Shown: positions 19,885 to 60,417, numbered from the stretch's first letter. The stretch: 64,000 nucleotides of DNA from Gammaproteobacteria bacterium (GCA_013003115.1 JABDLF010000058.1:3716-67715); one strand, 5' to 3'. Notes: generated by a model from the letters alone, not told the origin. Numbers and translations are program-made.

Positions 19885-19900
19885 CGTGACTGCGGTCACA
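19885..19900. promoter_or_regulatory. CRP-type box (9/10)
   Basis: CGTGA-ctgcgg-TCACA in the divergent region between the small ORF and the EAL gene. Confidence 0.65.
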
Positions 19901-20145
19901 AACATGTGCCTGCTTTGCCACCCCGAGCGGACTTTTTTCGCGAATACCGACTTGCATCACAATTCCTGATGCAAATATGTGATCTGGTACCAATTACGCT
20001 CCGGCCTGTACTTTTTCAGGGTTATCCCTATATGTAAGAGTTTCAGATTCCGTCATGATGTGCCCCTTTTTACAAACCAAACCTGGGGCTGGTGCGCTGT
20101 TTAAGCCAAGCCACTTAACTGCAGCGGATCGGTGGTCCGGAAATT

Positions 20146-22569
20146 ATGTTTGCATCACTAGTATTTGAGTCCCGTGCGTACGCCTTCAATCCGCACGCTC
20201 TGGCCACATTGGCCACGGCTCTTACAGGGGCACTCATCGGCATCCTGACGCTCAGGCGGGAGCGCGGCTCGCGCGTTGCGCTTCCATTTGCTCTTATCAC
20301 ACTTTGCCTGTCTGTGTGGATGACCGGCTCGACAATGATGTATCTGTCGCAGATTGCGGAAGTGGCCGAATTCTGGGCGCGCTTTGGACAACTTTTCATC
20401 GCCTTCATACCGGCCCTTGCATTTCTTTTTGCGGTGCGCCTGGTCAACCGCATTGAGCAGCTGCGGTATTACGTCTACGTGGCCATGCTCATTTCGAGTT
20501 CGTTCTTTGCCATGGTCCTTTTTTCAGATTTGCACACGAGCGGAATCTATCGCCATCCGTGGGGCTTTTACCCGCGCTATGGTCCGGCCGGACTGCTTTT
20601 TGTCGCGTACATTTCGCTGATGCTCGGCGCCTGCATGTATCTTCTGTGGCGCGCTTACGGACTGGCTGAGCAAGCCAGCATAACCCGGCGAAGAATCCGA
20701 TTGCTGCTGGTCGGAATCGGCATTGCCGGCCTGAGTGCGGTCGACGTTCTTGCCACCTTCGGTCTCCCTGTTTACCCGTTCGGATTCGTGATGCTGTTTG
20801 TTTTTTTCTGCATCATGGCGCTGATTACATGGCACTATCACCTCATCGATATTACGCCTGCGGTAGCGAGTCGCAAAATCATCGAGACCATGAGTGACGC
20901 CCTGCTGGTGATGGACGAAAACGCCAGAATCAGCCTTATAAACCCGGCTGCGAGTACGCTACTGGGAATACCGGAAGCCGAACTGATCGGAACCCAGGCT
21001 GACAAGCATTTAGCCGGGCTGCAGCTGGGCAACATCCTCAAAGAACTTGATAGCCAGCAGGTGATAAGGAATCGCCAGGTGCCCTTCCGCGAGGCGAAGG
21101 GCGCCCGCCGAGTGCTGAACGTGTCTGCCTCGCGCATGCATGACCGCCACAATACGAGCCTCGCCTCGATCATGGTCATGAGCGACATCACTGAACGCAC
21201 AACAGCGGAAGAGCGCGTTAAGTTCCTGGCATTTAATGATGAGCTCACGCGTTTACCCAATCGACTCAATTTTTATGCGCGACTTGAAGAAGAACTGCAG
21301 TCGGCGAATCAGAACAATCGCAGATTCACAGTGCTTTATCTGGATCTGGACCGATTCAGACGAATCAATGAGACACTCGGCCACATAGCAGGCGATGACC
21401 TGCTGTGCGCTGTGGCAGAGCGCTTAAAGAACAGGCTCGAAAACCCCGCAGCCGGCAGCAATTTCCCAAGCATGCTGCCCAACGGTTTTGTAGCCAGAGT
21501 GGGTGCTGACGAATTCGCGCTCGCGATGGCCAGCCTGGTCGACCTCAACGACATTCGCAGTTTCGCTGGCAGACTTCTGGAGGACATAGGGCAGCCTTTC
21601 ATGCTTGGCGAACACGAGGTAACGATCAGCGCCAGCATCGGCATAGCGCAGTATCCGCAACATGGTGACGACACCAAGAACCTGTTCAAGAATGCCGACT
21701 CTGCCATGTATCACGCAAAAGACGCCGGCCGAAATACTTTTCGACTTTACAATGATGACATGAAGGCCAACACGGCCGACCGGCTTGCACTTGAAAATGA
21801 TCTCCGGCGGGCAGTGGAACGAAATGAGCTTGAGCTCTACTACCAGCCCCAGTTCGATGGCCGCTGCAGATCAGTTGTTGGCTGCGAAGCTCTGCTGCGC
21901 TGGCATCATCCGGAGCGCGGCATGATATCGCCCATGGTCTTCATTCCACTTGCGGAAGAAGTCGGGCTTATACACAAGATCGGTGAATGGGTGCTCAACG
22001 CGGCCTGCAGGCAGGCTCAGCTATGGCAGACCGCCGGATTCAAAGACCTCAAGGTGGCTGTGAATCTGTCGGGCCACCAGTTTCGGCAATCCAATCTCGT
22101 GCTCGTCGTTGCCCAGGCTCTGATTAAGTCGGGCCTGGATGCCCGTTTGCTTGAGCTCGAGCTTACCGAGGGAATAATCATGCGCAACGTGGTGGAGACC
22201 ACTCGCACCCTCGGTGAACTGAAGTCGATGGGCATAGGAATTTCGGTCGATGATTTCGGAACCGGCTATTCATCACTGAGCTACCTGAAGCGGCTGCCCA
22301 TCGACGTGATTAAGATCGACCGATCGTTTGTAAGCGACATAAGCACAGACGCGGATGATCGCGCAATCACTGATGCCATCATCGGGCTGGCGCACAGCCT
22401 CAGGAAGTCGGTGATTGCCGAAGGTGTAGAGACAGAAGAGCAGGTTGCTTTTCTCGCTCAGCGGGACTGCCACATAATGCAGGGATACCTCTTCAGCAAA
22501 CCGCTGCCGGCAACCTCCTTCACGGAGTTGCTGCGAGGTTCCGAAGGCAAGACTCACCAGATGCCATAG
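20146..22569 (+). CDS. 7TM (HisKA_7TM-like)-PAS-GGDEF-EAL protein, probable c-di-GMP phosphodiesterase
   Basis: About 7 TM helices, PAS, degenerate GADEF; intact EAL, ELTE, DDFGTGYSSL, KIDRSF, AEGVE. Confidence 0.9.
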   Translation: MFASLVFESRAYAFNPHALATLATALTGALIGILTLRRERGSRVALPFALITLCLSVWMTGSTMMYLSQIAEVAEFWARFGQLFIAFIPALAFLFAVRLVNRIEQLRYYVYVAMLISSSFFAMVLFSDLHTSGIYRHPWGFYPRYGPAGLLFVAYISLMLGACMYLLWRAYGLAEQASITRRRIRLLLVGIGIAGLSAVDVLATFGLPVYPFGFVMLFVFFCIMALITWHYHLIDITPAVASRKIIETMSDALLVMDENARISLINPAASTLLGIPEAELIGTQADKHLAGLQLGNILKELDSQQVIRNRQVPFREAKGARRVLNVSASRMHDRHNTSLASIMVMSDITERTTAEERVKFLAFNDELTRLPNRLNFYARLEEELQSANQNNRRFTVLYLDLDRFRRINETLGHIAGDDLLCAVAERLKNRLENPAAGSNFPSMLPNGFVARVGADEFALAMASLVDLNDIRSFAGRLLEDIGQPFMLGEHEVTISASIGIAQYPQHGDDTKNLFKNADSAMYHAKDAGRNTFRLYNDDMKANTADRLALENDLRRAVERNELELYYQPQFDGRCRSVVGCEALLRWHHPERGMISPMVFIPLAEEVGLIHKIGEWVLNAACRQAQLWQTAGFKDLKVAVNLSGHQFRQSNLVLVVAQALIKSGLDARLLELELTEGIIMRNVVETTRTLGELKSMGIGISVDDFGTGYSSLSYLKRLPIDVIKIDRSFVSDISTDADDRAITDAIIGLAHSLRKSVIAEGVETEEQVAFLAQRDCHIMQGYLFSKPLPATSFTELLRGSEGKTHQMP

Positions 22570-22687
22570 TCGGGCAAGCACCATCCTGCTTGGACTGCCG
22601 CTCTGCCAAACCGGCGTGTGACCGCATCAAAGTTCTGCAATCGCGGCGCACGTGCAGCCTGAACTCCGGGTAACAGACTTACTTTAG

Positions 22688-22731
22688 TGTGATAAGCATC
22701 ACATCCCGGCTGCTCGCCTGTTTGTCATAAT
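22688..22731 (+). promoter_or_regulatory. Perfect CRP box plus extended -10 (class II-like promoter)
   Basis: TGTGA-taagca-TCACA at 22688-22703; TGtCATAAT with hexamer at 22726-22731. Confidence 0.75.
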
Positions 22732-22793
22732 ATCGCCAGTACCCGTCGCGCCTTTCACGCGCAGCGCCAACGTCATTTGACGGAGGTTTCAAC

Positions 22794-23744
22794 TTGCACA
22801 ACGCCCCCAGATGCATAGTGGTCAGCGTCGTTTTCGCGACCATGCTGCTCTTTGTTACGCCTGATCCGGCCTGGTCCCGGCAGAACAGCGAACTGCCGGA
22901 ACTCGTTGTGATGTCTGCCGTGAGCGACAATCCTCAGAGCCTCATCAGCAGCATGCGACCGCTCGCAGACTACGTAGAGAAAAAACTGGCTCCCCTCGGC
23001 GTGAAAAACGTCGAAATTCTGATTGCCGAAAACACCGAGCAGATGATTCGCTTCATACGTGATGGACGTGTCGACTGGATTACCGAGACGGCCTACTCCG
23101 CGGCGTTGCTGGAAAAGCGGGCAGGCGCAGAGATTGCGTTGCGCAAATGGAAACAAGGCGTAGCCAGCTACCGGAGCATTTTATTCGTCCGAAAAGACAG
23201 CGGTATCGAGTCCCTCGATCAGATCATTGATCGCAGCGTCGCGTTTCAGCACCCGGGTTCTACCACTGGTTATTTCGTGCCCCGTTCCGTATTTCAAAAC
23301 CTCGGCATGCCGCTGAAATCTCTGCGTTCGGTGCGCGAAAAGGCTATGCCGGGCTTTGTTAACTACGTTTTTTCCGGTGGCGAGTACAACTCGGCACAAT
23401 GGGTTCACAAAGGACTGGTCAGCGCAGCCGTGCTCAGCAACCTCGATTGGCAACGCGACGACATCGTACCTGCCAGCATAAAGCAGGATCTGAAAGTCAT
23501 TTATACAAGCCCACCGTTGCCACGAGCGCTGGAACTGCTGCGTAGCGATCTCGACCCGCGAATAAAGGCGGTGATCACTGAGACACTGCTTGCTGCTCAC
23601 GAAGATCCGCAGGCAAGCGAGGCCTTGCATGCCTACCACGGTACTTTTCGATTTGACAGACTGGACAGCGCCTCGATTCAGGCTCTCGGCGAAATCAGAA
23701 AGAGCCTTGGCAACGGCCCTGTACCGGCAGCGGGTGCACCATGA
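22794..23744 (+). CDS. PhnD-like phosphate/phosphonate-binding periplasmic protein
   Basis: Signal peptide, YRSILFVRKDSGI, AF..PGSTTGYFVP; TTG start after GGAGG; ATGA overlap with the next gene. Confidence 0.85.
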   Translation: MHNAPRCIVVSVVFATMLLFVTPDPAWSRQNSELPELVVMSAVSDNPQSLISSMRPLADYVEKKLAPLGVKNVEILIAENTEQMIRFIRDGRVDWITETAYSAALLEKRAGAEIALRKWKQGVASYRSILFVRKDSGIESLDQIIDRSVAFQHPGSTTGYFVPRSVFQNLGMPLKSLRSVREKAMPGFVNYVFSGGEYNSAQWVHKGLVSAAVLSNLDWQRDDIVPASIKQDLKVIYTSPPLPRALELLRSDLDPRIKAVITETLLAAHEDPQASEALHAYHGTFRFDRLDSASIQALGEIRKSLGNGPVPAAGAP

Positions 23745-25933
23745 GCAGAACACTGCGCATCAACCTCCAGACGCGCTACTCGCTGCAGATAATGGCTATC
23801 ATATTCGCAGGCATGATCAGCTTGTCGGCCTTCTCGGTCTGGCATTTTTCAAGCGCCGCTCATGAATACGAGAGCGTTACCATGTCCGCCATCGAATCGC
23901 ACCTGGAAGAGCAGCTCCGCGAACGGGCTGAGGTCATGACCGAATACCTTGCGCAGGACCTCAGTAATGCGCTACTGGTTTATGACCTGCAGGCCATGCT
24001 TCGACAACTCGGCACCGCGACTGCCCAGAGCGACGTGCTGTTCGCCTATGTGTATGGCGCCGATGGGCTCATCGTTCATGACGGCAGCCCGGAGATCACT
24101 GAATTTGGCCGACCGCTTGATGAACTGCTTGGATGGGAGGCCAGTATTCTGCGCGAGCCCCGCGCCGTCCTCAGCGGAAAAGACCTTGAATTTGTGCGCC
24201 CCATCAACCTGGGCGCCGAGGCACTGGGCGGGGTCGCGGTAGGACTGTCACTTAAAGTGGTTGCTGCAGAGACTGCCGGCCTCAGCAGCGAGCTTCGTCA
24301 GCTCAGCGGGCAGAGCCTGCGCAAAGAAATTTCATATGCTGCGACATTTACGCTGCTTTTTGTTTTGGCCGGCGCACTTCTGGCGCTTGTCACCGCGCGC
24401 CGGCTTGCAGGCCCGATTCGACGTCTGGCCGGCCATGCCAGGCAGGTTGGCCGCGGTCAGTTTGGGCAGCAGGTCGACATACGGCGCAATGACGAAGTCG
24501 GTGACCTCGTCAGCGCCTTCGGCAATATGCAGCAGAGCCTCGAAGCCAATCAAAAAGAGATTGCCTATCTCGCCTATCACGACCCGCTTACCGGCCTGCA
24601 AAACAGGGCGAGCATGATTACGGCATTGAACGAGCTGTGCGCCGATTGTCGCCAGAAAGAAACCATGGGCGCGGTGCTGTTTATTGATCTCGACGATTTC
24701 AAACCAGTGAACGATACGCTGGGTCACGAGGCAGGCGATGCTGTTCTCAGGAGCACGGCCAAACGCTTGCTTGCGTGCCTTGAATCAGACCTCGCAAGTG
24801 GCTGCATAATTGGCGGCGAGGGATTGAAGTCGGCTGCCCGTCTCGGCGGCGACGAGTTTACTGTCATGCTCACCAACCTTGGCGATGAAATGCGCGCTGC
24901 CAGTATTTGCGACGAGATACTTAAGGAGTTGAGCAGGCCGTTTGAAGTTAATGGCAGGGAGATCTTTATAGGCGCCAGCATCGGCGTTTCAGTTTTTCCG
25001 CAAGACGGCCGCGACGCCGAGTCACTGCTTGCACGCGCCGACGTCGCCATGTATCACGCAAAGCGACATGGCAAGCACGCGCACAAGTTTTTTGAAGAAC
25101 ACATGCTGGAAGAAACGCGCGCGAAGCTGTTCCTCATCAACGACCTGCGAAGTGCTCTCAGCAGCGAAGGCCTCACCATGCATTACCAGCCAATCGTTGC
25201 CGCAGCGAGCGGCCGGGTAATCGGGGCGGAGGCTCTGGTCAGGTGGCAGCACCCGCGCCGGGGCCTTATCAAGGCGGCCGAGTTCATCGAGGTAGCAGAA
25301 AAGAGCGGCGAAATAGAGCGGCTCGGGCAATGGGCTCTGGACAAAGTGTGCGCCGATCTCGCGGGGTGGCGAGAGAGCGGCCTTGATGGGCTGTTTGTTT
25401 CAATAAACATTTCGTCGCAGCAGCTTATGCGAGCCGACCTGCATGATTACGTCACCGGTGCTTTATCGCGCTGGGGTCTCGGGTCCCGGGATCTTCGGAT
25501 AGAGGCCAGCGAAGACCGCTTCGCGAAAAATGCTGAAGGTGCAACCAGTGTTCTTCGGGAGTGGAACGCCGCGGGCTTCGAGATCTGGATTGACAACTTT
25601 GGTTCCGGCGCAGGCTCGCTAACGAGCCTGCTCGGCGTTCCGGCAAGGGGAATCAAACTCGACCCCTCATTTATAAAGGGCATCACAACCAACGAGCGGC
25701 TGCGCACTTTCGTCTCTTCCATAATCAAGATGGCGCATTCGCTGCAGCTGGAAGTCTGCGCCGTGGGTGTGACCAGCGCCGCTCTCGCCGACTGGCTCAA
25801 GGAGAACGGTTGCCGTTATCTGCAGGGACAGTTTCTCGGCCCGGAGCTAAATGCCGAAAACTTTATTGGCCATCTTCGCTTCAAGCCTGGTGGCGGCAAT
25901 GACGAGAATCCGCGATCGCTCAAAGCTATATAG
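23741..25933 (+). CDS. Membrane sensor HAMP-GGDEF-EAL protein, probable diguanylate cyclase with degenerate EAL
   Basis: 2 TM, HAMP (DEVGDL), DLDDFK and RLGGDEF intact; EAL domain has DNFGSG and AVGV instead of DDFGTG and EGVE. Confidence 0.9.
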   Translation: MSRTLRINLQTRYSLQIMAIIFAGMISLSAFSVWHFSSAAHEYESVTMSAIESHLEEQLRERAEVMTEYLAQDLSNALLVYDLQAMLRQLGTATAQSDVLFAYVYGADGLIVHDGSPEITEFGRPLDELLGWEASILREPRAVLSGKDLEFVRPINLGAEALGGVAVGLSLKVVAAETAGLSSELRQLSGQSLRKEISYAATFTLLFVLAGALLALVTARRLAGPIRRLAGHARQVGRGQFGQQVDIRRNDEVGDLVSAFGNMQQSLEANQKEIAYLAYHDPLTGLQNRASMITALNELCADCRQKETMGAVLFIDLDDFKPVNDTLGHEAGDAVLRSTAKRLLACLESDLASGCIIGGEGLKSAARLGGDEFTVMLTNLGDEMRAASICDEILKELSRPFEVNGREIFIGASIGVSVFPQDGRDAESLLARADVAMYHAKRHGKHAHKFFEEHMLEETRAKLFLINDLRSALSSEGLTMHYQPIVAAASGRVIGAEALVRWQHPRRGLIKAAEFIEVAEKSGEIERLGQWALDKVCADLAGWRESGLDGLFVSINISSQQLMRADLHDYVTGALSRWGLGSRDLRIEASEDRFAKNAEGATSVLREWNAAGFEIWIDNFGSGAGSLTSLLGVPARGIKLDPSFIKGITTNERLRTFVSSIIKMAHSLQLEVCAVGVTSAALADWLKENGCRYLQGQFLGPELNAENFIGHLRFKPGGGNDENPRSLKAI

Positions 25934-25979
25934 TCACGACAAGACATCGGCGGCCAGGCCGGGCTGCCTCGCTCTTCTT

Positions 25980-26948
25980 TTAACTGCCAACGCGATGCAG
26001 GTGATGAACCGCAATCTCGGGTGGACAGTTAAAACGAACATCGAGCAGCGATGTTCCGGCACCATGTGTCGTGTAGCCCTGGACCTGACCTTTTCGCCAT
26101 CTGCCTTTGCAGTATCGGCGGGCGCATCTTGAATTTGTCACCGGCGGCCAGCCGCCCGGCAGATTAATTTGTCCGCCGTGACTATGGCCGCACAAAACGA
26201 AATCGTAGCCCTCAAGCCTGGCGTCATGCACTATTTCCGGGGAATGGCTGAGAAGAAGCTGGCATGCGCCATCCGGCACGCCTGTGCCTGCAGCAGCAAG
26301 GTCGCAAGCACCAAAATATCCGGCGTCATCGACACCGGCAATCCAGAGTCTTTCTCCGTCTCGTTCTATGTGGGTTGCCTCGTTGATGAGCACTTCGTAG
26401 CCGGCGCCCTCCAGCGCCGGAACCCAGCGCAGCGAATCGTGATTACCAAGTACAAGCAGGCACCGGCGTTTCAACGCCGAACGAAGCCGCCGCATCGCGG
26501 CAAGGGTTGGCCCCGCATCACCGTGGGTATGGAACCTCAGGTCACCGGTAATAACACAAAGGTCGTAGCCTTCGACCTCGCTCACGGTCTGCACCAGCGA
26601 ATCCTCGAACTCCTTCGAGGCGTCGATGTGCAGGTCGCTGAGTTGCAGAACCCGCACACCGTGCAGGCCCACCGGCAACCGCCCTGATTCAAATCGGTTT
26701 TGCACAACCCCGATGTCGAGGGCGTTGGCCCTGCCGCGGGCGTAAAGACCACTCAATTTCAGTGCGCCGCGCAACAACGAAGGACCCAGAATCCACTTTT
26801 CGATATAAGCAAACGGGCTCGAGCGACCAGCCACGGGCCTGCCTTCACCCCGCTCGGCGTCAAGCCTGCTACGCACAGCGGCCGGTCCCAGCCGCGGGCC
26901 TAAGTGGGCCAGCACCTCCTCATCGCCTGGCATGCTGAATTTGTCCAT
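25980..26948 (-). CDS. Calcineurin-like metallophosphoesterase
   Basis: SDLH, TGD, GNHD, LSH, GHSHGGQ. Confidence 0.88.
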   Translation of the reverse strand: MDKFSMPGDEEVLAHLGPRLGPAAVRSRLDAERGEGRPVAGRSSPFAYIEKWILGPSLLRGALKLSGLYARGRANALDIGVVQNRFESGRLPVGLHGVRVLQLSDLHIDASKEFEDSLVQTVSEVEGYDLCVITGDLRFHTHGDAGPTLAAMRRLRSALKRRCLLVLGNHDSLRWVPALEGAGYEVLINEATHIERDGERLWIAGVDDAGYFGACDLAAAGTGVPDGACQLLLSHSPEIVHDARLEGYDFVLCGHSHGGQINLPGGWPPVTNSRCARRYCKGRWRKGQVQGYTTHGAGTSLLDVRFNCPPEIAVHHLHRVGS

Positions 26949-27023
26949 TTCGAGTGACTATACACCTGCGCTCGCGGCCTACCGGACTGGACGCCGCCCG
27001 ATGATTTGCGTAATACGTTGGCT

Positions 27024-28160: not shown

Positions 28161-28201
28161 TTCTCAACAGGCCCCAGGGCCGGAACAGGGAGATCTGACC
28201 C

Positions 28202-31605: not shown

Positions 31606-31623
31606 TGTGAGCATTGAGTCACA
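31606..31623. promoter_or_regulatory. CRP-like box with 8-bp spacer
   Basis: TGTGA-gcattgag-TCACA with AT-rich flanks, between lipA and the PAS-GGDEF gene. Confidence 0.4.
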
Positions 31624-31838
31624 AATACTCAAATTTAGGGGATACCCTGATTATGCCATCCGCTCAATTGATGCAAAATCATGCTCGAAAGATATCCGTT
31701 CAATCGAATGCAACGGCAGGCTGCCTTTCTGGTGATGCGGCGAAGATATCCCATGACTTAAGGCAATGCGCCGGTCTGCCGATAAACTCCATGTGGAACG
31801 ACGTTCTTTAGTTCGAGTAAAATTTTTGGGAACCAAGG

Positions 31839-32894
31839 ATGAATCAACCGACCGGCACAAACCCCGACCTCTCAACCGAGCGCACCTGGCAGGCCGCCGT
31901 CCTCGACAGCCGGGATTACCTGGTGATGGCGCTCGACCCCCATGGCGTAATTCGCAGCATCAGCGCTGGCGGTCTGCTGCAGCTAGGTTACAAACTCGAG
32001 GAGCTGCGCGGCAAGATTGCCCCTGCCATTCTGTTTGAGCCGCGCGAAATTACGCGCCGGGCGCGACGGCTGAGCGAAGAGCTCGGAGAGAACATCGAAC
32101 CGGGGTTCAAGGTTTTCGTTTTCAGGGCGCAACAGGGAATTCCGGATGAGCAGGAATGGAACTGCGTACGACGGGATGGCAGCCATTTCCCGGTGCGCAT
32201 GTCCCTGCATCCGCAGCGCGATGCCGGTGGCGAAGTCAGCGGCTTTATTGCCATGGCTCGCAACGTCAGCGACCTGATCAGAGCGCGCAAAGATCTGTCC
32301 GACAGGGAAACCCAGCTCAAGGTAGCGCACGCAAGACTGGCGGCAACAACGGTAACCGACGAGCTGACCGGCATGAAAAATCGCCGCGCTTTCAACGAGC
32401 ACCTCGAACGGGAATTTCAGCGTGGTCTGCGTCATCACAGCATGCTGTCATTGATCTTTGCGAATATCGATGACATCAAAGGTTATAACGCAGAGTACGG
32501 GCATCATGCGGGCGATGAACTGATCAAGATGGTCTCTGAGCAAATTCTGAAGGACACGCGGAGCACCGATTACGTTGCACGCTTTGCTGGTGACGAATTC
32601 GCATTTGTATTGCCCCAGACGGACCGTGAGGGAGCCATGATCAAGGCGGATCGGCTGAGAGAGTCCATCGAGTCGAGCGAGTGGCCGCTGCGACCCGTGA
32701 CGGTCAGCGTGGGCGTGGCAACAATGACCGAGGAGTCTCCGGTCGTCCAGGACCTCACCAATAGCCGCACGCTGATTTCGAGGGCTCGTGATGCGCTCTT
32801 CGAGGCGAAAAGGACTGGCGCCAATCGAACCACGCACTTCAGGGAAATCACTAAGGATGGCGCGGACAAAGACGGCCAGGCCGAGCAGGCCTGA
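31839..32894 (+). CDS. Cytoplasmic PAS-GGDEF protein with degenerate active site and intact I-site
   Basis: PAS/PAC (RRDGSHFPV), TDELTG, NIDDIK instead of DIDxFK, RSTD-x5-AGDEF. Confidence 0.88.
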   Translation: MNQPTGTNPDLSTERTWQAAVLDSRDYLVMALDPHGVIRSISAGGLLQLGYKLEELRGKIAPAILFEPREITRRARRLSEELGENIEPGFKVFVFRAQQGIPDEQEWNCVRRDGSHFPVRMSLHPQRDAGGEVSGFIAMARNVSDLIRARKDLSDRETQLKVAHARLAATTVTDELTGMKNRRAFNEHLEREFQRGLRHHSMLSLIFANIDDIKGYNAEYGHHAGDELIKMVSEQILKDTRSTDYVARFAGDEFAFVLPQTDREGAMIKADRLRESIESSEWPLRPVTVSVGVATMTEESPVVQDLTNSRTLISRARDALFEAKRTGANRTTHFREITKDGADKDGQAEQA

Positions 32895-32955: not shown

Positions 32956-33026
32956 CGTGAACTGCGTCACAAACCACGGAATTAATTAGGGTTTTTGCGG
33001 ATCGCACCTGCCCGCACTGCTACAAT
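32956..33026 (+). promoter_or_regulatory. pgaA promoter: CRP-type box (9/10) and extended -10
   Basis: CGTGA-actgcg-TCACA at 32956-32971; TGcTACAAT with hexamer at 33021-33026. Confidence 0.65.
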
Positions 33027-33083: not shown

Positions 33084-35567
33084 ATGCAATCAAAGCTGGC
33101 AACCCTTTTCATCGCCGCGGTACTCGCCACCGCGAGCGTTGACGCAGCCGAATCCGGCGCATCCGATACACCGCTGCAACTCGATCTCAGCAACAGCCTG
33201 CGTGTGGGTGCTTACGTGCTCGATCTTTCCAGCGAGCAGCGCAGACACAATGCGGTGGCCATGGCGCGTTCCAACCAACTCGAGCCCGCGGCGCGGGTAC
33301 TCGAAGCACTGCACAGACGCGTGCCGGCAGACCGACAGGTGCTGTTCGACCTGTTGAGCGTGCTTAGCTGGCAAGGTGACCATGGACGCGTGGTGGCTCT
33401 TGCAGACGGCCTTAAGTCGCATGATCCGCCGGTCTACGTGCTTGAGGCCGTGGCGGGGTCGGCTCGCAGAAGTGCCAATTTTCAGGCCGCCATAGGCTGG
33501 TATGAAATTGCCCTCAAGAAAGAACCGGCTAACGCAGCGCTCAATGCAGGAATCATACTCAGCCACGCGGACGCTGGCGAAGCGAGCAAAGCACGCGCCC
33601 TGTTTGACGCTTCGCCCCCGGCTTTCAAGCGCTCCCTGGACGGCATGCTACTGGATGCCTACCTGCTCACAGCGGCGGGCCATCATCTGCAGGCCTTGTC
33701 GGCTTATGACCGGATTCTGCTTCGCAACGCCGACAACCCGGAGGCACAGCGCGGCAAATTTCGTGCGCTGTGGTCGCTCCTGCTGGTTGACCAGGCTCTG
33801 GAATTCGCTGCTGGTCATCCGGGCGTCGCCGAGCGCGAAGACATCCACGGGCTTTACGTCGACAGGGCCGCACTTTGGGTTCGGTGGGGCACGGAACCCA
33901 TCCAGCGCGGAAGCCACCGGTTCGCCGATCTCGACCGCGCGCTTGATCTGTTACAACAAAACCGGAGCCGATTCCCCGCCAACACCGAGCTGGGGAAAAC
34001 AACCCGCTTTGACCTCATTGCTGCTTTGCATGCACGCGGCCGTCACGACGAGGTTGCGGAAAGCTACGATGATCTCGACCTCGCAGACAATGCGTTCCCT
34101 GCCTACGCGCTGCGTGCGGTGGCCGGCTCGCAGCTCGCCCGGCGCGAGCCTGAGGAAGCGCTGCGACTGTATGACATGGCTCTCGACAAGCAGCCCGCAG
34201 ACTTCGACTTGAAACTCGATCGCTTTTTCGCGCTGGTTGAGCTGGATCGTCACGCGCAAGCTCGTGAACTTGCCGAAGACCTGGTTTTCTCACAGGACAT
34301 ATGGCTTACCGTTCCCGGCTCAAGAGTCGTAAAACCCAACCCCCGAAGGCTCAAAGCAGAAATCACACGCGCGCTGTCACATGCATACGCCGATGATCTT
34401 GCCACTGCCCAGTCCTTGTTTCAGGACATGCTTGCCGAGGCACCGCACAACACTGACGTTCGCCAGGAACTGGGCAACGTCTATCGCTGGCGAGGCTGGC
34501 CACGACGCGCGCTCTCGGAATACCGGCAGGTCTACACCGTCGAAGACGATCTGCTGAGTGCTCGTGTCGGCCTCGCAAATTCGCTGCTGGATCTCAACAT
34601 GGGCCGGGAGTTCGAACCCCTGTTTGCCGAGCTCAGGAACGAAGCACCGGACAACGCCGGCGTAAAGCGTCTCATTCGTCGCCATGACGTCTATCGCCGC
34701 AACCAGGTTTCCGTGGATGCCGGCGGCGGCACCAGCAGCGGAGAGCAGTTTGGCAGTCGCCAGCACCTGGCCGAGGCACGGCTGACTCTCGGCGGCTTCG
34801 GATATAACTGGCGACCATTCCTTAATTTGCATGACTCGCGAGCAGAGTTCACCGAAGGCACCGCGCGTAGAAAAAGCGCCGGGCTCGGCATCCAGTTTCG
34901 CCTTCCTGGTCACACGCTGGAAGCGGCGGCAAGCAGCAGCCTGGACGGCGAGTCGCGAACCGGCTTTGCCTTCTCGTATGGCTGGGACATCGACGACCGC
35001 TGGCGTCTCGACGGCCTGTTTGAAACCGAGTCTCATGCCCTGCCTCTGCGGGCCTATCGGAACGGCATAGACGCTGATCGACTGAGGCTGGCCGGGAGTT
35101 TCAGATATAGCGAGCTTCGTCAGGTTCGGGCGGCGCTCGAAGCGATGGACTTTTCCGACGGCAATGTGCGCAAGGCCCTTTTGCTTGAGGCGCGCCAGCG
35201 ACTGGTCAACGCCCCTCGCGTCAAATTCGATCTTGCCGCCGAATTCTTCACATCGCGAAACGACCTCACGGACGCCGCCTACTTCAGCCCCTCATCTGAC
35301 CGCGCCTTCAATCTTGGCGGCGACCTGCGCTGGCGAATGTTTCGTCGCTACGAAAGAAACTTCGACCAGCAGATTATTCTTAACGCAGGCCGCTACAGCC
35401 AAAGCGGCTTCGCCGCCGGCAATGTCGGCAGCATCGAGCTTCGCCAGGTAGTTCAATTGTCACACGCGCTCGAGTTTTTCTTTGGCGTGCGACGTGCGCG
35501 CGCCCTGTACGACGGTGGACTCGAATATGGCACCTTTTACCAGGGCGGAATCAGGGGGCGATTCTGA
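33084..35567 (+). CDS. pgaA: PNAG export porin PgaA (TPR plus beta-barrel)
   Basis: Signal peptide, TPR-like region, RGWPRRA, YFSP, C-terminal Phe; first gene of the pga operon. Confidence 0.92.
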   Translation: MQSKLATLFIAAVLATASVDAAESGASDTPLQLDLSNSLRVGAYVLDLSSEQRRHNAVAMARSNQLEPAARVLEALHRRVPADRQVLFDLLSVLSWQGDHGRVVALADGLKSHDPPVYVLEAVAGSARRSANFQAAIGWYEIALKKEPANAALNAGIILSHADAGEASKARALFDASPPAFKRSLDGMLLDAYLLTAAGHHLQALSAYDRILLRNADNPEAQRGKFRALWSLLLVDQALEFAAGHPGVAEREDIHGLYVDRAALWVRWGTEPIQRGSHRFADLDRALDLLQQNRSRFPANTELGKTTRFDLIAALHARGRHDEVAESYDDLDLADNAFPAYALRAVAGSQLARREPEEALRLYDMALDKQPADFDLKLDRFFALVELDRHAQARELAEDLVFSQDIWLTVPGSRVVKPNPRRLKAEITRALSHAYADDLATAQSLFQDMLAEAPHNTDVRQELGNVYRWRGWPRRALSEYRQVYTVEDDLLSARVGLANSLLDLNMGREFEPLFAELRNEAPDNAGVKRLIRRHDVYRRNQVSVDAGGGTSSGEQFGSRQHLAEARLTLGGFGYNWRPFLNLHDSRAEFTEGTARRKSAGLGIQFRLPGHTLEAAASSSLDGESRTGFAFSYGWDIDDRWRLDGLFETESHALPLRAYRNGIDADRLRLAGSFRYSELRQVRAALEAMDFSDGNVRKALLLEARQRLVNAPRVKFDLAAEFFTSRNDLTDAAYFSPSSDRAFNLGGDLRWRMFRRYERNFDQQIILNAGRYSQSGFAAGNVGSIELRQVVQLSHALEFFFGVRRARALYDGGLEYGTFYQGGIRGRF

Positions 35568-37507
35568 TGTCGCGCGCAATCAAACTTCTGGTTTTGCTGT
35601 TGGCCCTCGTCACCATAAGCCCGGCGCAGGCGGCCACGGAATTTATCGCCGTGTCCTACCATGACGTGCGAGACGATGTGGTCGCGGATTACGACCCGGA
35701 TCAGTACGCGGTTGCAACCGAAAATCTTGCCGCGCATTTTCGCTGGCTAAACGATCATGGCTACAAGCCAGTCAGCATCGCGGCCATTCTTGCGGCGCGA
35801 GCAGGCGGCACGCCGCTCCCCGAGAAAGCCGTTCTACTCACATTTGATGACGGTTATCGCAGCCACTACACCAGGGTCTTTCCGCTTCTCAAGGCTTTCA
35901 ATTACCCGGCGGTTTTCAGCCTGGTGACAAACTGGATGTCGCAGCCAGCCGGTGCGCGTATTCAGTATGGCAATGAGCCAAAGACACGCGAGGATTTTCT
36001 CAGCTGGGAACAGGTGCGCGAAATGCAGTCCTCAGGACTCGCCGAATTCGCATCCCACAGCCACGACCTGCACAAAGGAGTGCATGCCAACCCCCAGGGC
36101 AACGAGCTGCCGGCCGCCGTCGCTCGCCGATTCTCGGACGGCCAATACGAAGACAATCAGGCCTATCTGCGCCGGCTGCGGGAAGATCTGGGCAATAGCA
36201 TCAGGATTCTCGAGCGCGAGCTGGGTTTCAGACCACAGGTCATGACCTGGCCCTACGGAAAGTTTTCTGTCGACAGCGTTGGCGTTGCCCGCGAGCTCGG
36301 TCTGGACATAAACCTCACCCTCGAAACTGGCCGCGGCAATTTGCAGGAGTTAGCCCTGATCCCGCGCCATCTGATCCTGGCCAACCCAACGGCGGCAAAC
36401 CTCGCAGCGTCTCTCCTGCTTCCGGAAAGGCCGTCGATAGTGCGCGCCGCGCACGTCGATCTTGACTATCTGTATGATCCGGATCCTGCACAGCAGGAGG
36501 TCAATCTCAGCCTGCTGCTGAATCGCATACGTGCGCTCGAAATCAGCCACGTGTTCCTGCAGGCCTTTGCTGACCCGGACGCCAACGGGGCCGCTGCTTC
36601 GGTGTATTTTCCGAATCGGCACATGCCGGTGCGCGCTGACCTTTTCAGTCGCGTTGCATGGCAACTCAAAACCCGTGCCGACGTGCTGGTCTATGCCTGG
36701 ATGCCCATCCTGGCCTTTGAATTGCCTGACCCTGGCCAGGATCGATATGTGCTCGAATCAACCCACGCCGGCGTGCGCGCGGATCCCAAAAGTGAGCCAC
36801 GGCTGAGTCCGTTTGACGCCGACAACCGGAAACTCGTTCTTGATCTCTACGAAGATCTCGCTATCCATGCCGATTTCGACGGCATTCTTTTCCATGACGA
36901 CGGGCGGCTCAACGAATTCGAGGATGCCAGCGCACCAGGCCAGCGCGAACTGCAGGCGCTGTTTGGCAATAGCTACTCCTTCAGACAGCTGCGGGAGGAT
37001 CCCGACGCGCTCAGGCAATGGTCCCGGCACAAGCAGCAAGCTCTCACGGAATTCACCGGCAAACTCGCCAACCATGTTCGTCGCTGGCACCCTGAGATAA
37101 AGACCGCACGCAACCTGTTTGCCGACACGGTGCTTAAACCTGAAAGCGAATCATGGCTGGCGCAATCTATCGCCACAGCCATTGAAACTTACGATTACGT
37201 CGCGCTCATGGCCATGCCGTACCTGGAGAATCGCGATGATGCGGAAGCGTTTCTGCGGACCCTCGCAGTGAAGGTTACCGAATTGCCGCGCGGACCGCAG
37301 AAAGTCATTTTCGAGTTTCAAACCGTTGACTGGCGAAATGGCCACGAGATCCATGCCACTGAAATTGCCAGGCACATGCGCCGCCTCCAGAGCCTCGGTA
37401 TCAGGCACTTCGCCTGGTATCCCGACGATTTCATAGCCGGCAAGCCAGCCCTCGAGCCTTTGCGCGAGGGCGCCTCCCTGGCCGATTACACGCACCGGAG
37501 GCGCTGA
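35567..37507 (+). CDS. pgaB: PNAG N-deacetylase/hydrolase PgaB
   Basis: YHDV, LTFDDG, HSHDLH, WPYG, HVDLDY, DGILFHDD, MAMPY, YPDDF. Confidence 0.96.
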   Translation: MSRAIKLLVLLLALVTISPAQAATEFIAVSYHDVRDDVVADYDPDQYAVATENLAAHFRWLNDHGYKPVSIAAILAARAGGTPLPEKAVLLTFDDGYRSHYTRVFPLLKAFNYPAVFSLVTNWMSQPAGARIQYGNEPKTREDFLSWEQVREMQSSGLAEFASHSHDLHKGVHANPQGNELPAAVARRFSDGQYEDNQAYLRRLREDLGNSIRILERELGFRPQVMTWPYGKFSVDSVGVARELGLDINLTLETGRGNLQELALIPRHLILANPTAANLAASLLLPERPSIVRAAHVDLDYLYDPDPAQQEVNLSLLLNRIRALEISHVFLQAFADPDANGAAASVYFPNRHMPVRADLFSRVAWQLKTRADVLVYAWMPILAFELPDPGQDRYVLESTHAGVRADPKSEPRLSPFDADNRKLVLDLYEDLAIHADFDGILFHDDGRLNEFEDASAPGQRELQALFGNSYSFRQLREDPDALRQWSRHKQQALTEFTGKLANHVRRWHPEIKTARNLFADTVLKPESESWLAQSIATAIETYDYVALMAMPYLENRDDAEAFLRTLAVKVTELPRGPQKVIFEFQTVDWRNGHEIHATEIARHMRRLQSLGIRHFAWYPDDFIAGKPALEPLREGASLADYTHRRR

Positions 37508-37509
37508 GT

Positions 37510-38772
37510 ATGGACTTCGGCCACACATCAGCGATCTTCGACTTTGCCTACTACTATCCGCTATTCATGGGCTACCTGTGGATCATCGCCGCGCTTGTCT
37601 ATTACTTTCACTGGGAAAGAAAAGACCGCTTTAGCTATGAGCAGATGCCCAGGCTGAAGGATCAGCCACCCGTTTCTTTCATAGTGCCCTGTCACAATGA
37701 AGGCGATAATTGTCGCGAAACCATCGACTCGCTTCTGCGGCAGAACTACCCTGAGTTCGAGATCATCGCGATCAACGACTGCAGCAGCGACGATACGGGA
37801 GCCGTCCTCGACGACATTCAGCAAAACTGCGAAAACGTGCGTGTAATTCACTTTGCGGCAAATCAGGGCAAAGGAATGGGGCTGCGCATGGGCGCCCTGA
37901 CGGCGCGTCATGAGTTTCTTGTCTGTCTCGATGGCGACGCGCTGCTGCACCCCAACGCAACGCTGTGGCTAATGCGGCACTTCGTCAGCGGACCGCGCGT
38001 CGGTGCGGTAACCGGCAACCCGCGGGTACGCAATCGCACCACGCTGCTTGGCAAAATCCAGGTCTGCGAATTTTCATCCATCATCGGCCTGATAAAACGC
38101 GCACAGAGAATCTACGGGCGCGTGTTTACTGTCTCTGGCGTTGTCAGCGCCTTTCGAAAAACGGCGCTGCATCACGTGGGTTACTGGAACCTCGACATGG
38201 TAACGGAGGACATTGATGTCAGCTGGCGGCTACAGCTGAATCACTGGGATATTCGCTACGAGCCGCGTGCCGTGTGCTGGATCCTGATGCCCGAAAAGCT
38301 CATTGGTCTCTGGCGCCAGAGACTACGCTGGTCACAGGGTGGACTGGAAGTCCTGCGTCGCTATTGGCGATTGCTTTTTAAATGGCGCTCGCGACGCATG
38401 TGGCTCGTCAGCTTCGAACTGATGTTGTCCACATTCTGGGCCCACGTGATGGGCGCGATACTCCTGCTTTGGATTGCCGGTAAATTTCTGCCTCTGCCTG
38501 AAACCATGCAGGTGCCCACGGTTATTCCAGGCTGGGCCGGCGTCATCCTCGGATTTACCTGCCTGCTGCAGTTCGCTGTCAGCCTCACCATGGACGGTCG
38601 CTACGAACCCCGGCTCGGGCGCTTCTACTACTGGATGATCTGGTACCCGATGATCTACTGGGTGATTCAGGCAGCAACGACAATCGTGGCATTCCCTCGC
38701 GCTATGTTCAGGCTGCGCGGCCGTCGGGCCATCTGGACAAGCCCGGATCGCGGACTGAGGCCACCATCATGA
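37510..38772 (+). CDS. pgaC: PNAG synthase PgaC (GT2)
   Basis: PCHNE, DCSSD, LDGD, TEDID, QRLRW, WTSPDRG. Confidence 0.96.
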   Translation: MDFGHTSAIFDFAYYYPLFMGYLWIIAALVYYFHWERKDRFSYEQMPRLKDQPPVSFIVPCHNEGDNCRETIDSLLRQNYPEFEIIAINDCSSDDTGAVLDDIQQNCENVRVIHFAANQGKGMGLRMGALTARHEFLVCLDGDALLHPNATLWLMRHFVSGPRVGAVTGNPRVRNRTTLLGKIQVCEFSSIIGLIKRAQRIYGRVFTVSGVVSAFRKTALHHVGYWNLDMVTEDIDVSWRLQLNHWDIRYEPRAVCWILMPEKLIGLWRQRLRWSQGGLEVLRRYWRLLFKWRSRRMWLVSFELMLSTFWAHVMGAILLLWIAGKFLPLPETMQVPTVIPGWAGVILGFTCLLQFAVSLTMDGRYEPRLGRFYYWMIWYPMIYWVIQAATTIVAFPRAMFRLRGRRAIWTSPDRGLRPPS

Positions 38773-39224
38773 GCAATCGCCGCGAATCCGAGATTTTCAT
38801 CAATGCGCCGGGACTCAGGCATCGGCACCGCCGCGCCGGCGACCAGCTGCTGACGCTGATCATGTGGGCGATTTACGCCTACCTCTGGCTGCCGGTCATC
38901 AGCCTGATCGCGTGGTTCGTCGGCATTGATCTTTTTTACCAAGAGATGGTGGTCGACGGCGGCTTTGATGCGTTTATCGAACTGTCGGGGTGGTACCTTG
39001 CGGCAATTGTTCTGATTGTCCTGGCGGTTGGCGGCTGGTCTACGAGCAACTACTTTCGTTTCCATGACAAGAATCGGCGCCGGAAGCAGCCCGAAGTCAG
39101 TGACGCTGATATTGCCGAGTGGTTCCAGGTTGACAAGCAAAAGCTTGACCGGCTGCGCGCAGCCGAGCATATCTTGCTGGTTCTTGACGAAAAAGGCCTG
39201 ATAGACCAGAGCAGCGATATCTGA
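38769..39224 (+). CDS. pgaD: PNAG biosynthesis protein PgaD
   Basis: Two TM helices, W...N..RF...RR, ATGA overlap with pgaC. Confidence 0.88.
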   Translation: MSNRRESEIFINAPGLRHRHRRAGDQLLTLIMWAIYAYLWLPVISLIAWFVGIDLFYQEMVVDGGFDAFIELSGWYLAAIVLIVLAVGGWSTSNYFRFHDKNRRRKQPEVSDADIAEWFQVDKQKLDRLRAAEHILLVLDEKGLIDQSSDI

Positions 39225-52087: not shown

Positions 52088-52102
52088 GGGGGGCCAGGCT
52101 GA

Positions 52103-52771: not shown

Positions 52772-52787
52772 ACGGGGCTCGCAGGCG

Positions 52788-53819: not shown

Positions 53820-53854
53820 AAGTGAGTTAGAATATAATACTCTTTGGGAACATT

Positions 53855-53897
53855 AACATAAACACGTAAGTTGTTAAATTCTGTGACTATCGTCACA
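53855..53897 (-). promoter_or_regulatory. Class II CRP-dependent promoter
   Basis: Perfect TGTGA-ctatcg-TCACA at 53882-53897; -10 TATGTT at 53860-53855 places the box at -41.5. Confidence 0.78.
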
Positions 53898-54142
53898 AAA
53901 ACCGGCGCCCCGGCGAATGCTCGTCCAAGCGTCGGGCTTCGCCAGAGCGCGGGCTTTGCTGCATCCGCGTCTTTTCGATCCCCATTGCGCCAGCAGGGAA
54001 GCGCTACCGTGGCGGCGGAGTATCCATACGCACCGCCCGGCGCTTGTTCCAAAAAGGTCTTGAAAATTCCGAGGCCTGCGGCGGTCGCCCTAGCCTGCAG
54101 GCACGACAACGGGCGACTTCCGCGTACCAATTCTGGCACGCG

Positions 54143-56619: not shown

Positions 56620-56693
56620 GCTACATCCCGAATGATAACGAAGATGCAAAGCCCGCCAGCGCCGCCAGACTGCAGATTGCCAAAGGACCCGGA

Positions 56694-59678: not shown

Positions 59679-59691
59679 ACCAAACGGCTAT

Positions 59692-60192
59692 CTAAAAGAG
59701 CTGGTCGCGCGCAAACAGGTCATCGCGGTATTCACTGACGAACTGCAGCGTCCTCAGCAGAGGCAGGTGTTCCGGGACAATACGCCGGTCAAGTCTCCGT
59801 GCAGACAACGCATCGATGATTTCATGCAGCAGCCCTGGAATCAGTACGAGCTCGCCGCCGCCGAGGGTGCGACGTCGCGCTGCGCGCGCATATCCCAGCA
59901 GGGCGCGCTGACGAAGGACAGGTTTCTTCCTGAAACCCCTGGCGATAGCCTCGACGTGGGCCTGACCAACCCGAAACTTGGCCCTGAAACGTTTGTCGCG
60001 CTTCTCCCACGAATCCGAATCCATTGATGCTTCAACGTGAACAAACTCGCCGCTCGTGGGGTGTTGGGCCAGTACGTCCAGCTCACCGCCCCCCGCTTTC
60101 CCGGTGCCGGCCACTTTCACATTGCGAAGCACAAAGTACCCTTGAAATTCGTACCATTCTGCAGCCAGCTGCACCAGATAGTTCGCGCCCAT
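59692..60192 (-). CDS. PD-(D/E)XK-like nuclease-fold protein
   Basis: EWY..QGYFV..NV, ELDVLA, HVEASMD. Confidence 0.65.
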   Translation of the reverse strand: MGANYLVQLAAEWYEFQGYFVLRNVKVAGTGKAGGGELDVLAQHPTSGEFVHVEASMDSDSWEKRDKRFRAKFRVGQAHVEAIARGFRKKPVLRQRALLGYARAARRRTLGGGELVLIPGLLHEIIDALSARRLDRRIVPEHLPLLRTLQFVSEYRDDLFARDQLF

Positions 60193-60373
60193 TCGCCCCC
60201 CCTGGCGATAGATCGTCAGCCACACTCACTTCCGTACAGCTTCAGCATAGCTAAACCAGCCGTCCCGCGCAGCGGCCAGGACTCACCGGAATCAGCCCTC
60301 GCCGACGCAAACGCGCAAAAACCCTGATTTTCAGCCATAAGCGTGAAGCCGCAGGGTTTATGCGTCGGGCATC

Positions 60374-60417
60374 TGTGAACTGCATCACATATGCCCGCTT
60401 TATGGCCCTGTTATCTT
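60374..60417 (+). promoter_or_regulatory. Perfect CRP box plus extended -10 (class II-like promoter)
   Basis: TGTGA-actgca-TCACA at 60374-60389; TGtTATCTT with hexamer at 60412-60417. Confidence 0.75.

Follow-up and report, generated by a model that had tools for sequence, protein, structure and literature searches.

Conserved CRP-type operator candidates upstream of c-di-GMP, PNAG and unannotated genes in an uncultured gammaproteobacterium with two CRP paralogs

A 64,000-nt stretch of DNA from an uncultured gammaproteobacterium (GCA_013003115.1, JABDLF010000058.1:3716-67715; hereafter the window) carries a CRP-family regulator gene, crp2, together with genes for cyclic di-GMP (c-di-GMP) signalling and for the synthesis of poly-N-acetylglucosamine (PNAG), and palindromic boxes of the form TGTGA-N6-TCACA lie before several of these genes. 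Are these boxes genuine operators, and which protein would read them? A preliminary description of the window had taken them for a dense regulon of the local crp2. We report here that the palindromes behave as functional, evolutionarily conserved CRP-type sites, that is, as predicted operators, and that comparison with relatives makes their probable reader the canonical CRP of the order, whose gene in this organism, crp1, is the second CRP gene of the genome and lies on another contig, C42. The window corresponds to C5:3716-67715 of its own assembly, G000 (2.17 Mb, 115 contigs, 82% complete), which was compared with three congeners, G001, G002 and G003, to give four genomes of the genus.

All six sites of the preliminary description, namely three perfect boxes (22688, 53882, 60374), two boxes matching at nine of ten core positions (19885, 32956) and one variant with an N8 spacer, were found as listed, and all of them are intergenic on our map of open reading frames (ORFs) and Pfam domains (Table 1). 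The three perfect boxes compare with 0.05 expected from 100 dinucleotide-preserving shuffles of the window, where the earlier rough estimate had been about 0.03 per 64 kb, and the six boxes with at most one mismatch compare with 1.11 expected; none of the 100 shuffles reached either count. The one-mismatch additions are the intergenic boxes 19885 and 32956 and a site at 16274 inside the sbcB-like gene. Throughout the assembly, the N6 spacing gave 11 perfect sites, nine of them intergenic, as opposed to 0-2 perfect sites for each of the spacers N0-N5 and N7-N12 and 0-3 sites per spacing for the reversed arrangement TCACA-Nn-TGTGA. This excess at N6 alone indicates that the motif is specific, as expected of a CRP-type dimer. 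Moreover, the intergenic share was 9/11 for perfect, 22/41 for one-mismatch and 59/441 for two-mismatch sites, in a genome of which 196,030 nt (9%) are intergenic under rough gene calls. With these calls, site density was far from equal in the two kinds of DNA, being 45 times higher in intergenic than in coding DNA for perfect sites and 11.7 times higher for one-mismatch sites.

The boxes are also conserved in place. The congeners carry the region in the same gene order, with a DNA identity of about 70% (roughly 64-80%) over matched, mostly coding stretches, and every N6 box was retained at its position, those at 19885, 22688 and 32956 in 4/4 genomes and those at 53882 and 60374 in 3/3, the corresponding region having not been found in the 65%-complete G001. 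Over six alignments of three or four genomes, 54 of 60 half-site positions were invariant, compared with 5 of the 38 positions in spacers and 20% (246 of 1252) elsewhere in the intergenic DNA, so the conservation in relatives that had been proposed as a check is borne out. Since the half-sites are invariant while the spacers drift, the pattern has the appearance of a footprint left by a dyad-binding protein. The notion that the palindromes are accidental, or repeats devoid of regulatory function, could draw on the small absolute numbers of sites. It runs counter to the shuffling results, the enrichment specific to N6 and to intergenic DNA, the retention of half-sites beside varying spacers, and a box position relative to start codons that is conserved across families, as described below; we regard it as practically negligible.

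Table 1. Positions of the CRP-type sites, promoter elements and genes discussed, numbered from the first nucleotide of the window
Feature	Position	Strand	Remarks
crp2, CRP paralog, 225 aa	16733..17410	-	AGGAGG 6 nt before ATG; sbcB-like gene 8 nt downstream
orf65, 65 aa, C-terminus HWSRLH	19653..19850	-	unannotated family
CRP-type box CGTGACTGCGGTCACA, 9/10	19885..19900	.	centre 42.5 nt from orf65 start codon, 253.5 nt from GGDEF-EAL start
7TM-PAS-GGDEF-EAL gene	20146..22569	+	Pfam; GGDEF motif reads GADEF; EAL, DDFGTG, EGVE present
Perfect CRP-type box TGTGATAAGCATCACA	22688..22703	.	predicted class II position before SBP-GGDEF-EAL operon
Extended -10 TGtCATAAT	22723..22731	+	invariant in 4 genomes; no -35 detected
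PhnD-like periplasmic binding protein gene	22794-23744	+	Pfam, NCBIfam
HAMP-GGDEF-EAL gene	23741-25933	+	Pfam, NCBIfam; GGDEF and EAL motifs intact
N8 variant TGTGAGCATTGAGTCACA	31606..31623	.	upstream of PAS-GGDEF gene; without canonical promoter geometry
PAS-GGDEF gene, motif AGDEF	31839..32894	+	Pfam; directly upstream of pgaA
CRP-type box CGTGAACTGCGTCACA, 9/10	32956..32971	.	57.5 nt from conserved pgaA -10
Extended pgaA -10 TGcTACAAT	33018..33026	+	congeners TGcTAAAAT or TGcTAGAAT; G001 TGgTAGAAT
pgaABCD operon (PNAG synthesis, export)	33084..39224	+	PgaA_barrel, GHL13 + Polysacc_deac_1, Glyco_tranf_2_3, PgaD
MscS channel with cNMP-binding domain	42395-43837
unk249, 249 aa	52103-52852	-	no assigned function
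unk216, 216 aa	52788-53438	-	no assigned function
orf46, 47 aa, one predicted membrane helix	53676-53819	-	no assigned function
Perfect CRP-type box TGTGACTATCGTCACA	53882..53897	.	upstream of orf46-unk216(-unk249)
Perfect CRP-type box TGTGAACTGCATCACA	60374..60389	.	predicted class II position before unk142
-10 TGtTATCTT, pattern TGnTAnnnT conserved	60409-60417	+	30.5 nt from box 60374 centre
unk142, 142 aa, invariant cysteines C82, C87, C115, C129	60494..60922	+	family of hypothetical proteins

Several boxes stand at a fixed distance from a promoter element. Box 22688, present with 0-1 mismatch in 4/4 genomes of the genus, is followed by 21-22 unconserved nucleotides and then by the invariant TTGTCATAAT, which places its centre 30.5 nt from the first base of the -10, and box 60374 is separated from its own -10 by a gap of 21-22 nt. 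A scan for sigma-70 promoters that needs both hexamers found none in 22600-22800, at 60374 or at pgaA, in agreement with activator dependence. Box 53882 lies inside a 40-nt block that is invariant in 3/3 genomes, and is 29.5 nt from TATGTT or 34.5 nt from TGtTAATGT. The class II geometry previously proposed for all three perfect boxes thus fits the spacing at 22688 and 60374, and is ambiguous at 53882. Overall, four boxes (22688, 60374, 19885 and probably 53882) show a centre-to--10 spacing of 28.5-30.5 nt, which fits the class II distance. The sites, their enrichment, their conservation and their spacing are direct observations, and because the enrichment is specific to N6 and to intergenic DNA, the half-sites are conserved and the spacing to the -10 is kept, the boxes behave like functional CRP-type operators.

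The clearest case is box 19885, between the divergent orf65 and 7TM-PAS-GGDEF-EAL (seven-transmembrane) genes, whose ten core positions are all invariant in four genomes as against one of six spacer positions. The orf65 product is 91-94% identical in the congeners. It gave no Pfam or NCBIfam match, returned only clusters of 65-aa hypothetical proteins from a protein atlas, and had as its best Foldseek match the archaeal ribosomal protein LX at a non-significant E of 0.03; a limited literature search, which does not show that the family is unpublished, found no account of it. Homologues form 205 representative clusters at E<=1e-3. Of 30 homologue rows returned, 24 from 20 genomes were analysed, after removal of the unpublished genome G018 and of five weaker second copies, one of them without upstream DNA. 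In all 24, the box centre lies at -40.5 to -43.5 relative to the start codon's first base (at most one mismatch in 19, two in four, three in one), and a TAnnnT begins at -12 to -14; among all 30 rows, 23 have a box with at most one mismatch within 300 nt. From this spacing, transcription of orf65 would start at or next to the start codon itself, and orf65 thus looks like a predicted leaderless transcript from a class II CRP promoter. Since the geometry is kept in homologues from genomes with the canonical CRP only, box 19885 is best assigned to orf65, which it fits better than the 7TM-PAS-GGDEF-EAL gene.

The same intergenic region, 19851-20145, contains conserved extra elements. A TCACA-N16-TGTGA with half-sites facing outward, at 19966-19982, is kept in 3/4 genomes; the assembly has three such sites, two of them intergenic. 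A sigma-54 reading of CTGGTACC in this region was considered by eye and rejected, since G001 does not conserve the element.

Two further unannotated families carry boxes outside the genus; in these and the other cross-family counts, the relatives are phylogenetically non-independent. All eight unk142 homologues at E<=1e-50 have a box, six of them perfect and five from outside the genus, each followed by a TAnnnn hexamer after 21-23 nt (by eye), and none of three distant homologues has one. For unk216, a box lies within 800 nt upstream in homologues from 11/23 genomes (genus 3/3, outside 8/20), or 10/22 without G018, and six of the eight boxes found outside the genus are followed, 20-22 nt on, by a TAnAnT-like hexamer (by eye). 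orf65, unk142 and unk216 are accordingly predicted to be old class II CRP targets of the order and, judging from these upstream scans, are the most deeply conserved box-bearing targets tested. The idea that uncharacterised proteins are drawn into the regulon is thus upheld, these being the genes with the deepest-conserved boxes (24/24, 8/8 close homologues and 11/23, respectively). As for the unk142 product, its AlphaFold2 (AF2) model has a predicted local distance difference test score (pLDDT) of 77.8, and Foldseek found nothing against the Protein Data Bank (PDB) at E<=0.001; a C2-like beta-sandwich fold was considered and rejected, since the VIA-align matches were weak (Z<=5.8), a level that common arrangements also reach. 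Genomes G002 and G003 have an additional GGDEF-EAL gene between the unk177 and unk142 homologues (L093:7311-8534 and L087:4394-5719), with its own one-mismatch box upstream (L093:9959 and L087:7059); it is absent at window 60226-60493.

The c-di-GMP and PNAG genes show a different distribution. The PhnD-like substrate-binding protein (SBP) gene and the HAMP-GGDEF-EAL gene overlap by 4 nt and form an operon (22794..25933), whose box was found at 1/7 loci outside the genus. At pgaA, the box is centred at about -69.5 in the window genome and about -70.5 in the three congeners (58.5 nt to the -10 there), with 10/10 core positions invariant in four genomes; outside the genus, 1/12 loci have a box, a count that omits three loci that are truncated and the fragments of the interrupted G001 gene. 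Class I CRP sites lie at -61.5 and -71.5, and the pgaA box, at about -70, is 1-2 nt off the latter. Between this box and the -10 lies a conserved GGAATTnATTAGGGTTTTTCC element, which makes a co-regulator likely. The pgaABCD genes are contiguous on one strand, with all four Pfam families above cut-off. The c-di-GMP (SBP-GGDEF-EAL) and PNAG boxes would therefore be largely additions of this genus, going by their distribution among relatives. In G001, pgaA (G001:C29:2897-5358) is interrupted, with one in-frame TAG and matches in three pieces, but the box before it has been retained.

The N8 site before the PAS-GGDEF gene is of another kind: its 8-bp spacer departs from the N6 operator, it is the sole N8 site of the genome, a count at background level by itself, and the N8 form is kept in 3/4 genomes with 7/10 core positions invariant, the left half being lost in G001. 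The preliminary description had held that every GGDEF/EAL unit and pgaA has a box upstream. By position this is so in the window, but one of these sites is the non-canonical N8 variant, box 19885 fits orf65 better, and of the 25 GGDEF/EAL genes in the whole genome only six carry a box with at most one mismatch within 400 nt upstream of their transcription unit. This is still an excess over the 38 of all 1019 transcription units (hypergeometric 1.9e-4), and boxes are therefore associated with GGDEF/EAL genes, but not with every unit outside the window. The GGDEF motifs of the window read GADEF, GGDEF and AGDEF, and EAL is intact in both EAL domains. Since cyclase and phosphodiesterase domains occur together in the target proteins, how c-di-GMP would change on balance is not predictable.

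Downstream of the CRP-type sites before the 7TM-PAS-GGDEF-EAL and PAS-GGDEF genes, all four genomes have a TCAGGG-N4-CCC(G/T)AT element (20010-20030 and 31636-31652), and a related AGGGTTTTTCC occurs in the pgaA promoter at 32987-32999. Genome-wide there are 13 matches, six of them intergenic, and two other clear intergenic copies gave no functional clue. The element may be the site of another regulator of c-di-GMP genes; a sigma-28 reading was discarded for its poor fit in spacing and -35 to the flagellin promoter TCAAG-N14-GCCGATAC of the same genome.

Do these boxes all activate the genes to which they were assigned above? Some might instead repress, or serve the other strand: 19885 could act on the GGDEF-EAL gene, 53882 against a plus-strand site, and the pgaA box could damp a promoter driven by the GGAATTnATTAGGGTTTTTCC factor. 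In this direction point the plus-strand TTAACA-16-TAAATT with an upstream TG, which ends 2 nt before box 53882, the conserved extra elements in 19851-20145 and in the pgaA upstream region, and the report that high cyclic AMP (cAMP) lowers pga expression in Acinetobacter baumannii (PMC11410210). Yet box 53882 has no gene after it on the plus strand, a minus-strand gene coming next; a -35 is missing from the promoters at 22688 and 60374, whose spacing fits activator dependence; and the spacing from box 19885 to orf65 is fixed across 20 genomes. We thus consider repression or action on the other strand rather unlikely as an account of these sites. A minus-strand terminator-like hairpin of the PA3496-family gene lies at 53901-53914, and its T-tail runs into box 53882; this hairpin and the plus-strand promoter-like site together fall in window 53853-53914.

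We next turn to the protein that would bind. The local candidate, crp2, is a close CRP relative: it aligns end to end with Escherichia coli CRP (E 1e-68 to its structures), scores 272.6 bits against the cut-off of 266 of the NCBIfam CRP equivalog NF008732, keeps R180, E181 and R185 in the recognition helix (REMVGR vs RETVGR in E. coli), and has the nucleotide-pocket residues E72, R82-T83 and, in the C-helix, T127-N128. Positions 19, 21 and 101 of activating region 2 (AR2) are Arg in both crp1 and crp2. Comparison with 25 loci in genomes of other families, at which the single CRP is 79-86% identical to crp1 and 57-62% to crp2, nevertheless indicates that crp2 is not the orthologue of the order-wide single CRP/Vfr gene. 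Among 401 genomes of the order that were sampled, the crp2 type occurs in five, four of this genus and G008, whose copy is 70% identical to crp2 and again adjoins DUF192 and ppnN genes, which in the window are divergent from the crp2/sbcB-like pair.

The two paralogs differ in parts that may matter for function. Within the residue range of activating region 1 (AR1), crp1 has the E. coli-like AMTHPQGMQ, and crp2 reads AVSVPGGMA, so that T158 and H159 are replaced by S158 and V159. In total, crp2 differs from an otherwise conserved crp1 residue at 39 positions; the changes in or near functional regions are S83T, H159V, Q164A, Q170S, E171Q and S179T, most of them common to the G008 copy, and positions 170 and 179 are DNA-backbone contacts in E. 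coli CRP. With H159L, the E. coli protein no longer activates class I promoters, nor several of class II (PMC3950696).

The preliminary description had made crp2 the sole regulator of all boxes in the window. Its location 2.5 kb from box 19885, its score above the CRP equivalog cut-off and its TGTGA-reading residues are in keeping with this. However, boxes of the same geometry stand before orf65, unk142 and unk216 homologues and before pilM in genomes in which no crp2-type gene was found, the box-promoter architecture of the three unannotated genes being shared by many such genomes, and a canonical CRP with an intact E. coli-like AR1 is encoded in the same genome as crp2. The occurrence of such boxes where no crp2-type gene was found means that the canonical CRP is sufficient to explain the motif. 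Control by crp2 alone is thus very improbable; the probable regulator is crp1 on C42, crp2 being a rare second paralog. Each of three near-complete genomes with the canonical CRP only contains 6-10 perfect boxes, the control with the reversed pattern giving 0-1. No box with up to two mismatches was found upstream of crp2 or crp1 that would suggest autoregulation.

Around these paralogs, some further observations were made. At G021:C331 (locus L179), an orf65 homologue has within about 0.5 kb a CRP paralog of a third type (identity 64.6% with crp2, 55% with crp1), and orf65 homologues are also found near the crp2-type genes of this genus and G008. The one-mismatch box in the sbcB-like coding region (16274-16289) has a counterpart at a similar position in G002 (L090:16453), which may reflect codon conservation and not protein binding.

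Genes of cyclic-nucleotide signalling are present in the genome as well. Five class III cyclase matches and ten domains that bind cyclic nucleotide monophosphates (cNMP) were found; a class I cyclase was not, in an assembly that is 82% complete. At the substrate-specifying positions, the cyclases read K/T, K/T, K/D and N/N, with no E/C type seen; we take K/T and K/D to be the signature of adenylate cyclases and E/C that of guanylate cyclases. Outside the window, a perfect box precedes a gene resembling class II cAMP phosphodiesterases, and another precedes flagellin, directly upstream of its sigma-28-type promoter. Boxes were likewise found before a GspH/FimT-like pilin, pilM/ponA, an HD-GYP protein, a FIST gene followed by a 1498-aa GGDEF-EAL ORF, a cNMP-binding EAL protein and three AAA-FHA paralogs. 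Across genomes, 16/30 pilM loci have a box (15/27 outside the genus, or 14/26 without G018). From their annotation, the remaining box-bearing genes look like a cAMP/Vfr-type regulon.

Three cNMP-binding and EAL domain fusions (C1:17193-18440, C112:1686-2921 and C114:3838-4929), the second with a one-mismatch box 116.5 nt upstream, offer a direct protein-level link from a cyclic mononucleotide to c-di-GMP. The three paralogous FHA proteins (C32:6061-7314, C41:7336-8730 and C68:7306-10515) each have one or two CRP-type boxes upstream, and those of C32 and C68 contain AAA_22.

Taken together, we infer the binding protein, the acting nucleotide, the transcription start and the sign of regulation at each site as follows. 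Class III adenylate cyclases would make cAMP, and cAMP-bound crp1, the CRP/Vfr orthologue, would bind TGTGA-N6-TCACA. At 19885, 22688, 53882 and 60374, the box would replace the -35 at class II distance, and binding should activate orf65, the SBP-HAMP-GGDEF-EAL operon, orf46-unk216 and unk142, respectively. The pgaA box near -70 would act in a class I-like manner with a likely co-regulator. In our estimation, the probable explanation is that all N6 boxes are bound in this way by cAMP-bound crp1, with activation at the class II promoters and, at pgaA, modulation from about -70 in concert with a further factor. The CRP switch over a c-di-GMP/PNAG module that had been proposed for this locus is therefore retained in part: the boxes before the SBP-GGDEF-EAL operon, the PAS-GGDEF gene (as the N8 form) and pgaABCD are there in the genus, and the link to the local crp is not supported.

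Several points weigh against assigning all boxes to crp1. The base-contacting residues are the same in crp1 and crp2, so the DNA-reading residues do not separate the two. The window boxes lie 2-43 kb from crp2, as those of a local regulator would, and the window is the most box-rich region of the assembly, with 5 of 31 intergenic sites of at most one mismatch in 2.6% of the intergenic DNA; this clustering has a binomial P of 1.2e-3 before correction for about 34 possible windows, a moderate excess of boxes. The pgaA and SBP-GGDEF-EAL boxes are almost confined to the crp2-carrying genus (4/4 vs 1/12 and 1/7 outside), and perfect boxes number 4.6-5.6 per Mb in three sampled genomes of the genus (14 in G002 and 12 in G003), as compared with 1.6-2.1 in three genomes with the canonical CRP only. 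At 53882, two -10 readings are allowed and a plus-strand promoter-like site overlaps or abuts the box. Finally, the assembly is only 82% complete, gene calls are rough and come from our own codon-usage caller, and the -10 hexamers were identified by eye.

Some of these points would be accounted for if both paralogs shared the boxes, crp1 running an old core of orf65, unk142, unk216, pili, flagellin and the cAMP phosphodiesterase, and crp2, possibly with a different activation surface or ligand response, adding to it, competing with it or forming mixed dimers, and being responsible for the genus-specific c-di-GMP/PNAG layer. Consistent with such sharing are the identical base-contacting residues and the very similar dimer helix, the substitutions that crp2 has in common with the G008 copy (including H159V in AR1, S83T, Q170S, E171Q and S179T), the activation defect of E. 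coli H159L (PMC3950696), the restriction of crp2-type genes to 5/401 genomes, the genus-restricted boxes at pgaA and the SBP-GGDEF-EAL operon, the two- to three-fold higher number of perfect boxes per Mb in the genus, and the position of crp2 in the box-richest window. Against it stands that the genus represents one evolutionary event, that is, a co-occurrence sample of one. In G008, furthermore, no N6 site with at most one mismatch and no perfect N8 site was found on the short crp2 contig or beside the lipA and PAS-GGDEF genes, and no pgaA was found; crp2 has no autoregulatory box, and the box sequences do not split into two site classes. The support for site sharing, from genus-restricted boxes, box density and proximity in one lineage, is circumstantial, and we hold a division of labour between the paralogs to be possible, though clearly the minor prospect beside control by crp1. 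More speculatively still, and with considerable doubt, crp2, with its H159V in the polymerase contact surface and its changed positions 170 and 179, may have drawn the c-di-GMP/PNAG genes of the genus into the cyclic-nucleotide regulon by sharing crp1 operators, leaving orf65, unk142 and unk216 as a conserved, unstudied CRP core of the order; crp2 might then be a competitor, a mixed-dimer partner or a class II-only activator.

A cGMP role of crp2, which the R-T signature of its pocket could suggest, is not supported. Like crp2, CgrA has an RT pocket signature, and the cgrA operon has a perfect TGTGA-N6-TCACA box; however, RS and RT pocket forms are both accepted, and RT together with TN is also present in the cAMP-binding Rv3676 (PMC10187061). 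Unlike in the cGMP-responsive CgrA and Clr systems, no guanylate-type cyclase signature was seen here.

The predicted control by crp1 can be compared with known systems. Control of c-di-GMP and pga genes by cAMP-CRP/Vfr has precedents: in A. baumannii, cAMP-Vfr alters the expression of pga, a diguanylate cyclase, phosphodiesterases and type IV pilus genes (PMC11410210). As in the cAMP-Vfr regulons of A. baumannii and Pseudomonas aeruginosa, the present system would combine a CRP homologue with cAMP from a class III-type cyclase (PMC11410210, PMC10187061), and its targets would include type IV pilus genes, genes of c-di-GMP synthesis and degradation, and the pga cluster. A. baumannii also has a second annotated 'crp', to which no role is assigned; here, the second paralog is closely CRP-like and passes the equivalog cut-off. 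Unlike the Vfr systems, ours is a prediction from sequence in an uncultured organism, and the boxes at pgaA and at a GGDEF-EAL operon are candidate direct operators largely of one genus. The predicted arrangement at 22688, 60374, 19885 and probably 53882 resembles E. coli class II promoters, where a TGTGA-N6-TCACA dyad takes the place of the -35 at some 41.5 nt before the start (PMC10187061, PMC3950696), and the basic AR2 positions 19, 21 and 101 are shared as well. In contrast to the E. coli promoters, most of those described here have an extended -10, and orf65 apparently starts at the start codon itself. In Yersinia pestis, too, CRP ties carbon/cAMP status to pga/hms-type biofilm (PMC4549057); here, a conserved box is present at the pgaA promoter.

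Other features of the region touch none of these subjects. DNA nearly identical to window 19600-29500 was found in 13 sequencing-run rows from four studies, all of DNA and none of RNA, labelled beach sand or marine sediment metagenome, and one such sample may be the source of the window DNA. At window 1958-6773, three adjacent minus-strand genes encode a 675-aa NAD_binding_4 and short-chain dehydrogenase reductase, a protein with an NYN domain and one of 533 aa whose match to phage tail-sheath proteins stays below threshold (29 bits vs a cut-off of 31.4). Elsewhere in the assembly, a pair of one-mismatch boxes 42 nt apart occurs twice in reverse-complement orientation (C57:997-1054 and C110:55664-55721), each time between acyltransferase and XerC/D-like integrase genes, which points to a duplicated region or an assembly duplicate.

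The cAMP-CRP wiring of c-di-GMP and PNAG genes known from cultured pathogens would thus be present, with candidate direct operators, in an uncultured gammaproteobacterium, in whose lineage this wiring appears to be evolutionarily recent. The three unannotated families, with boxes at a fixed predicted class II distance across many families of the order, are prime candidates for effectors of cyclic-nucleotide signalling, and orf65 would offer a particularly clear example of a leaderless mRNA predicted at a promoter that depends on an activator. Finally, a canonical CRP accompanied by a rare close paralog with the same DNA-reading residues may provide a tractable system for how duplicated global regulators divide or share one motif.

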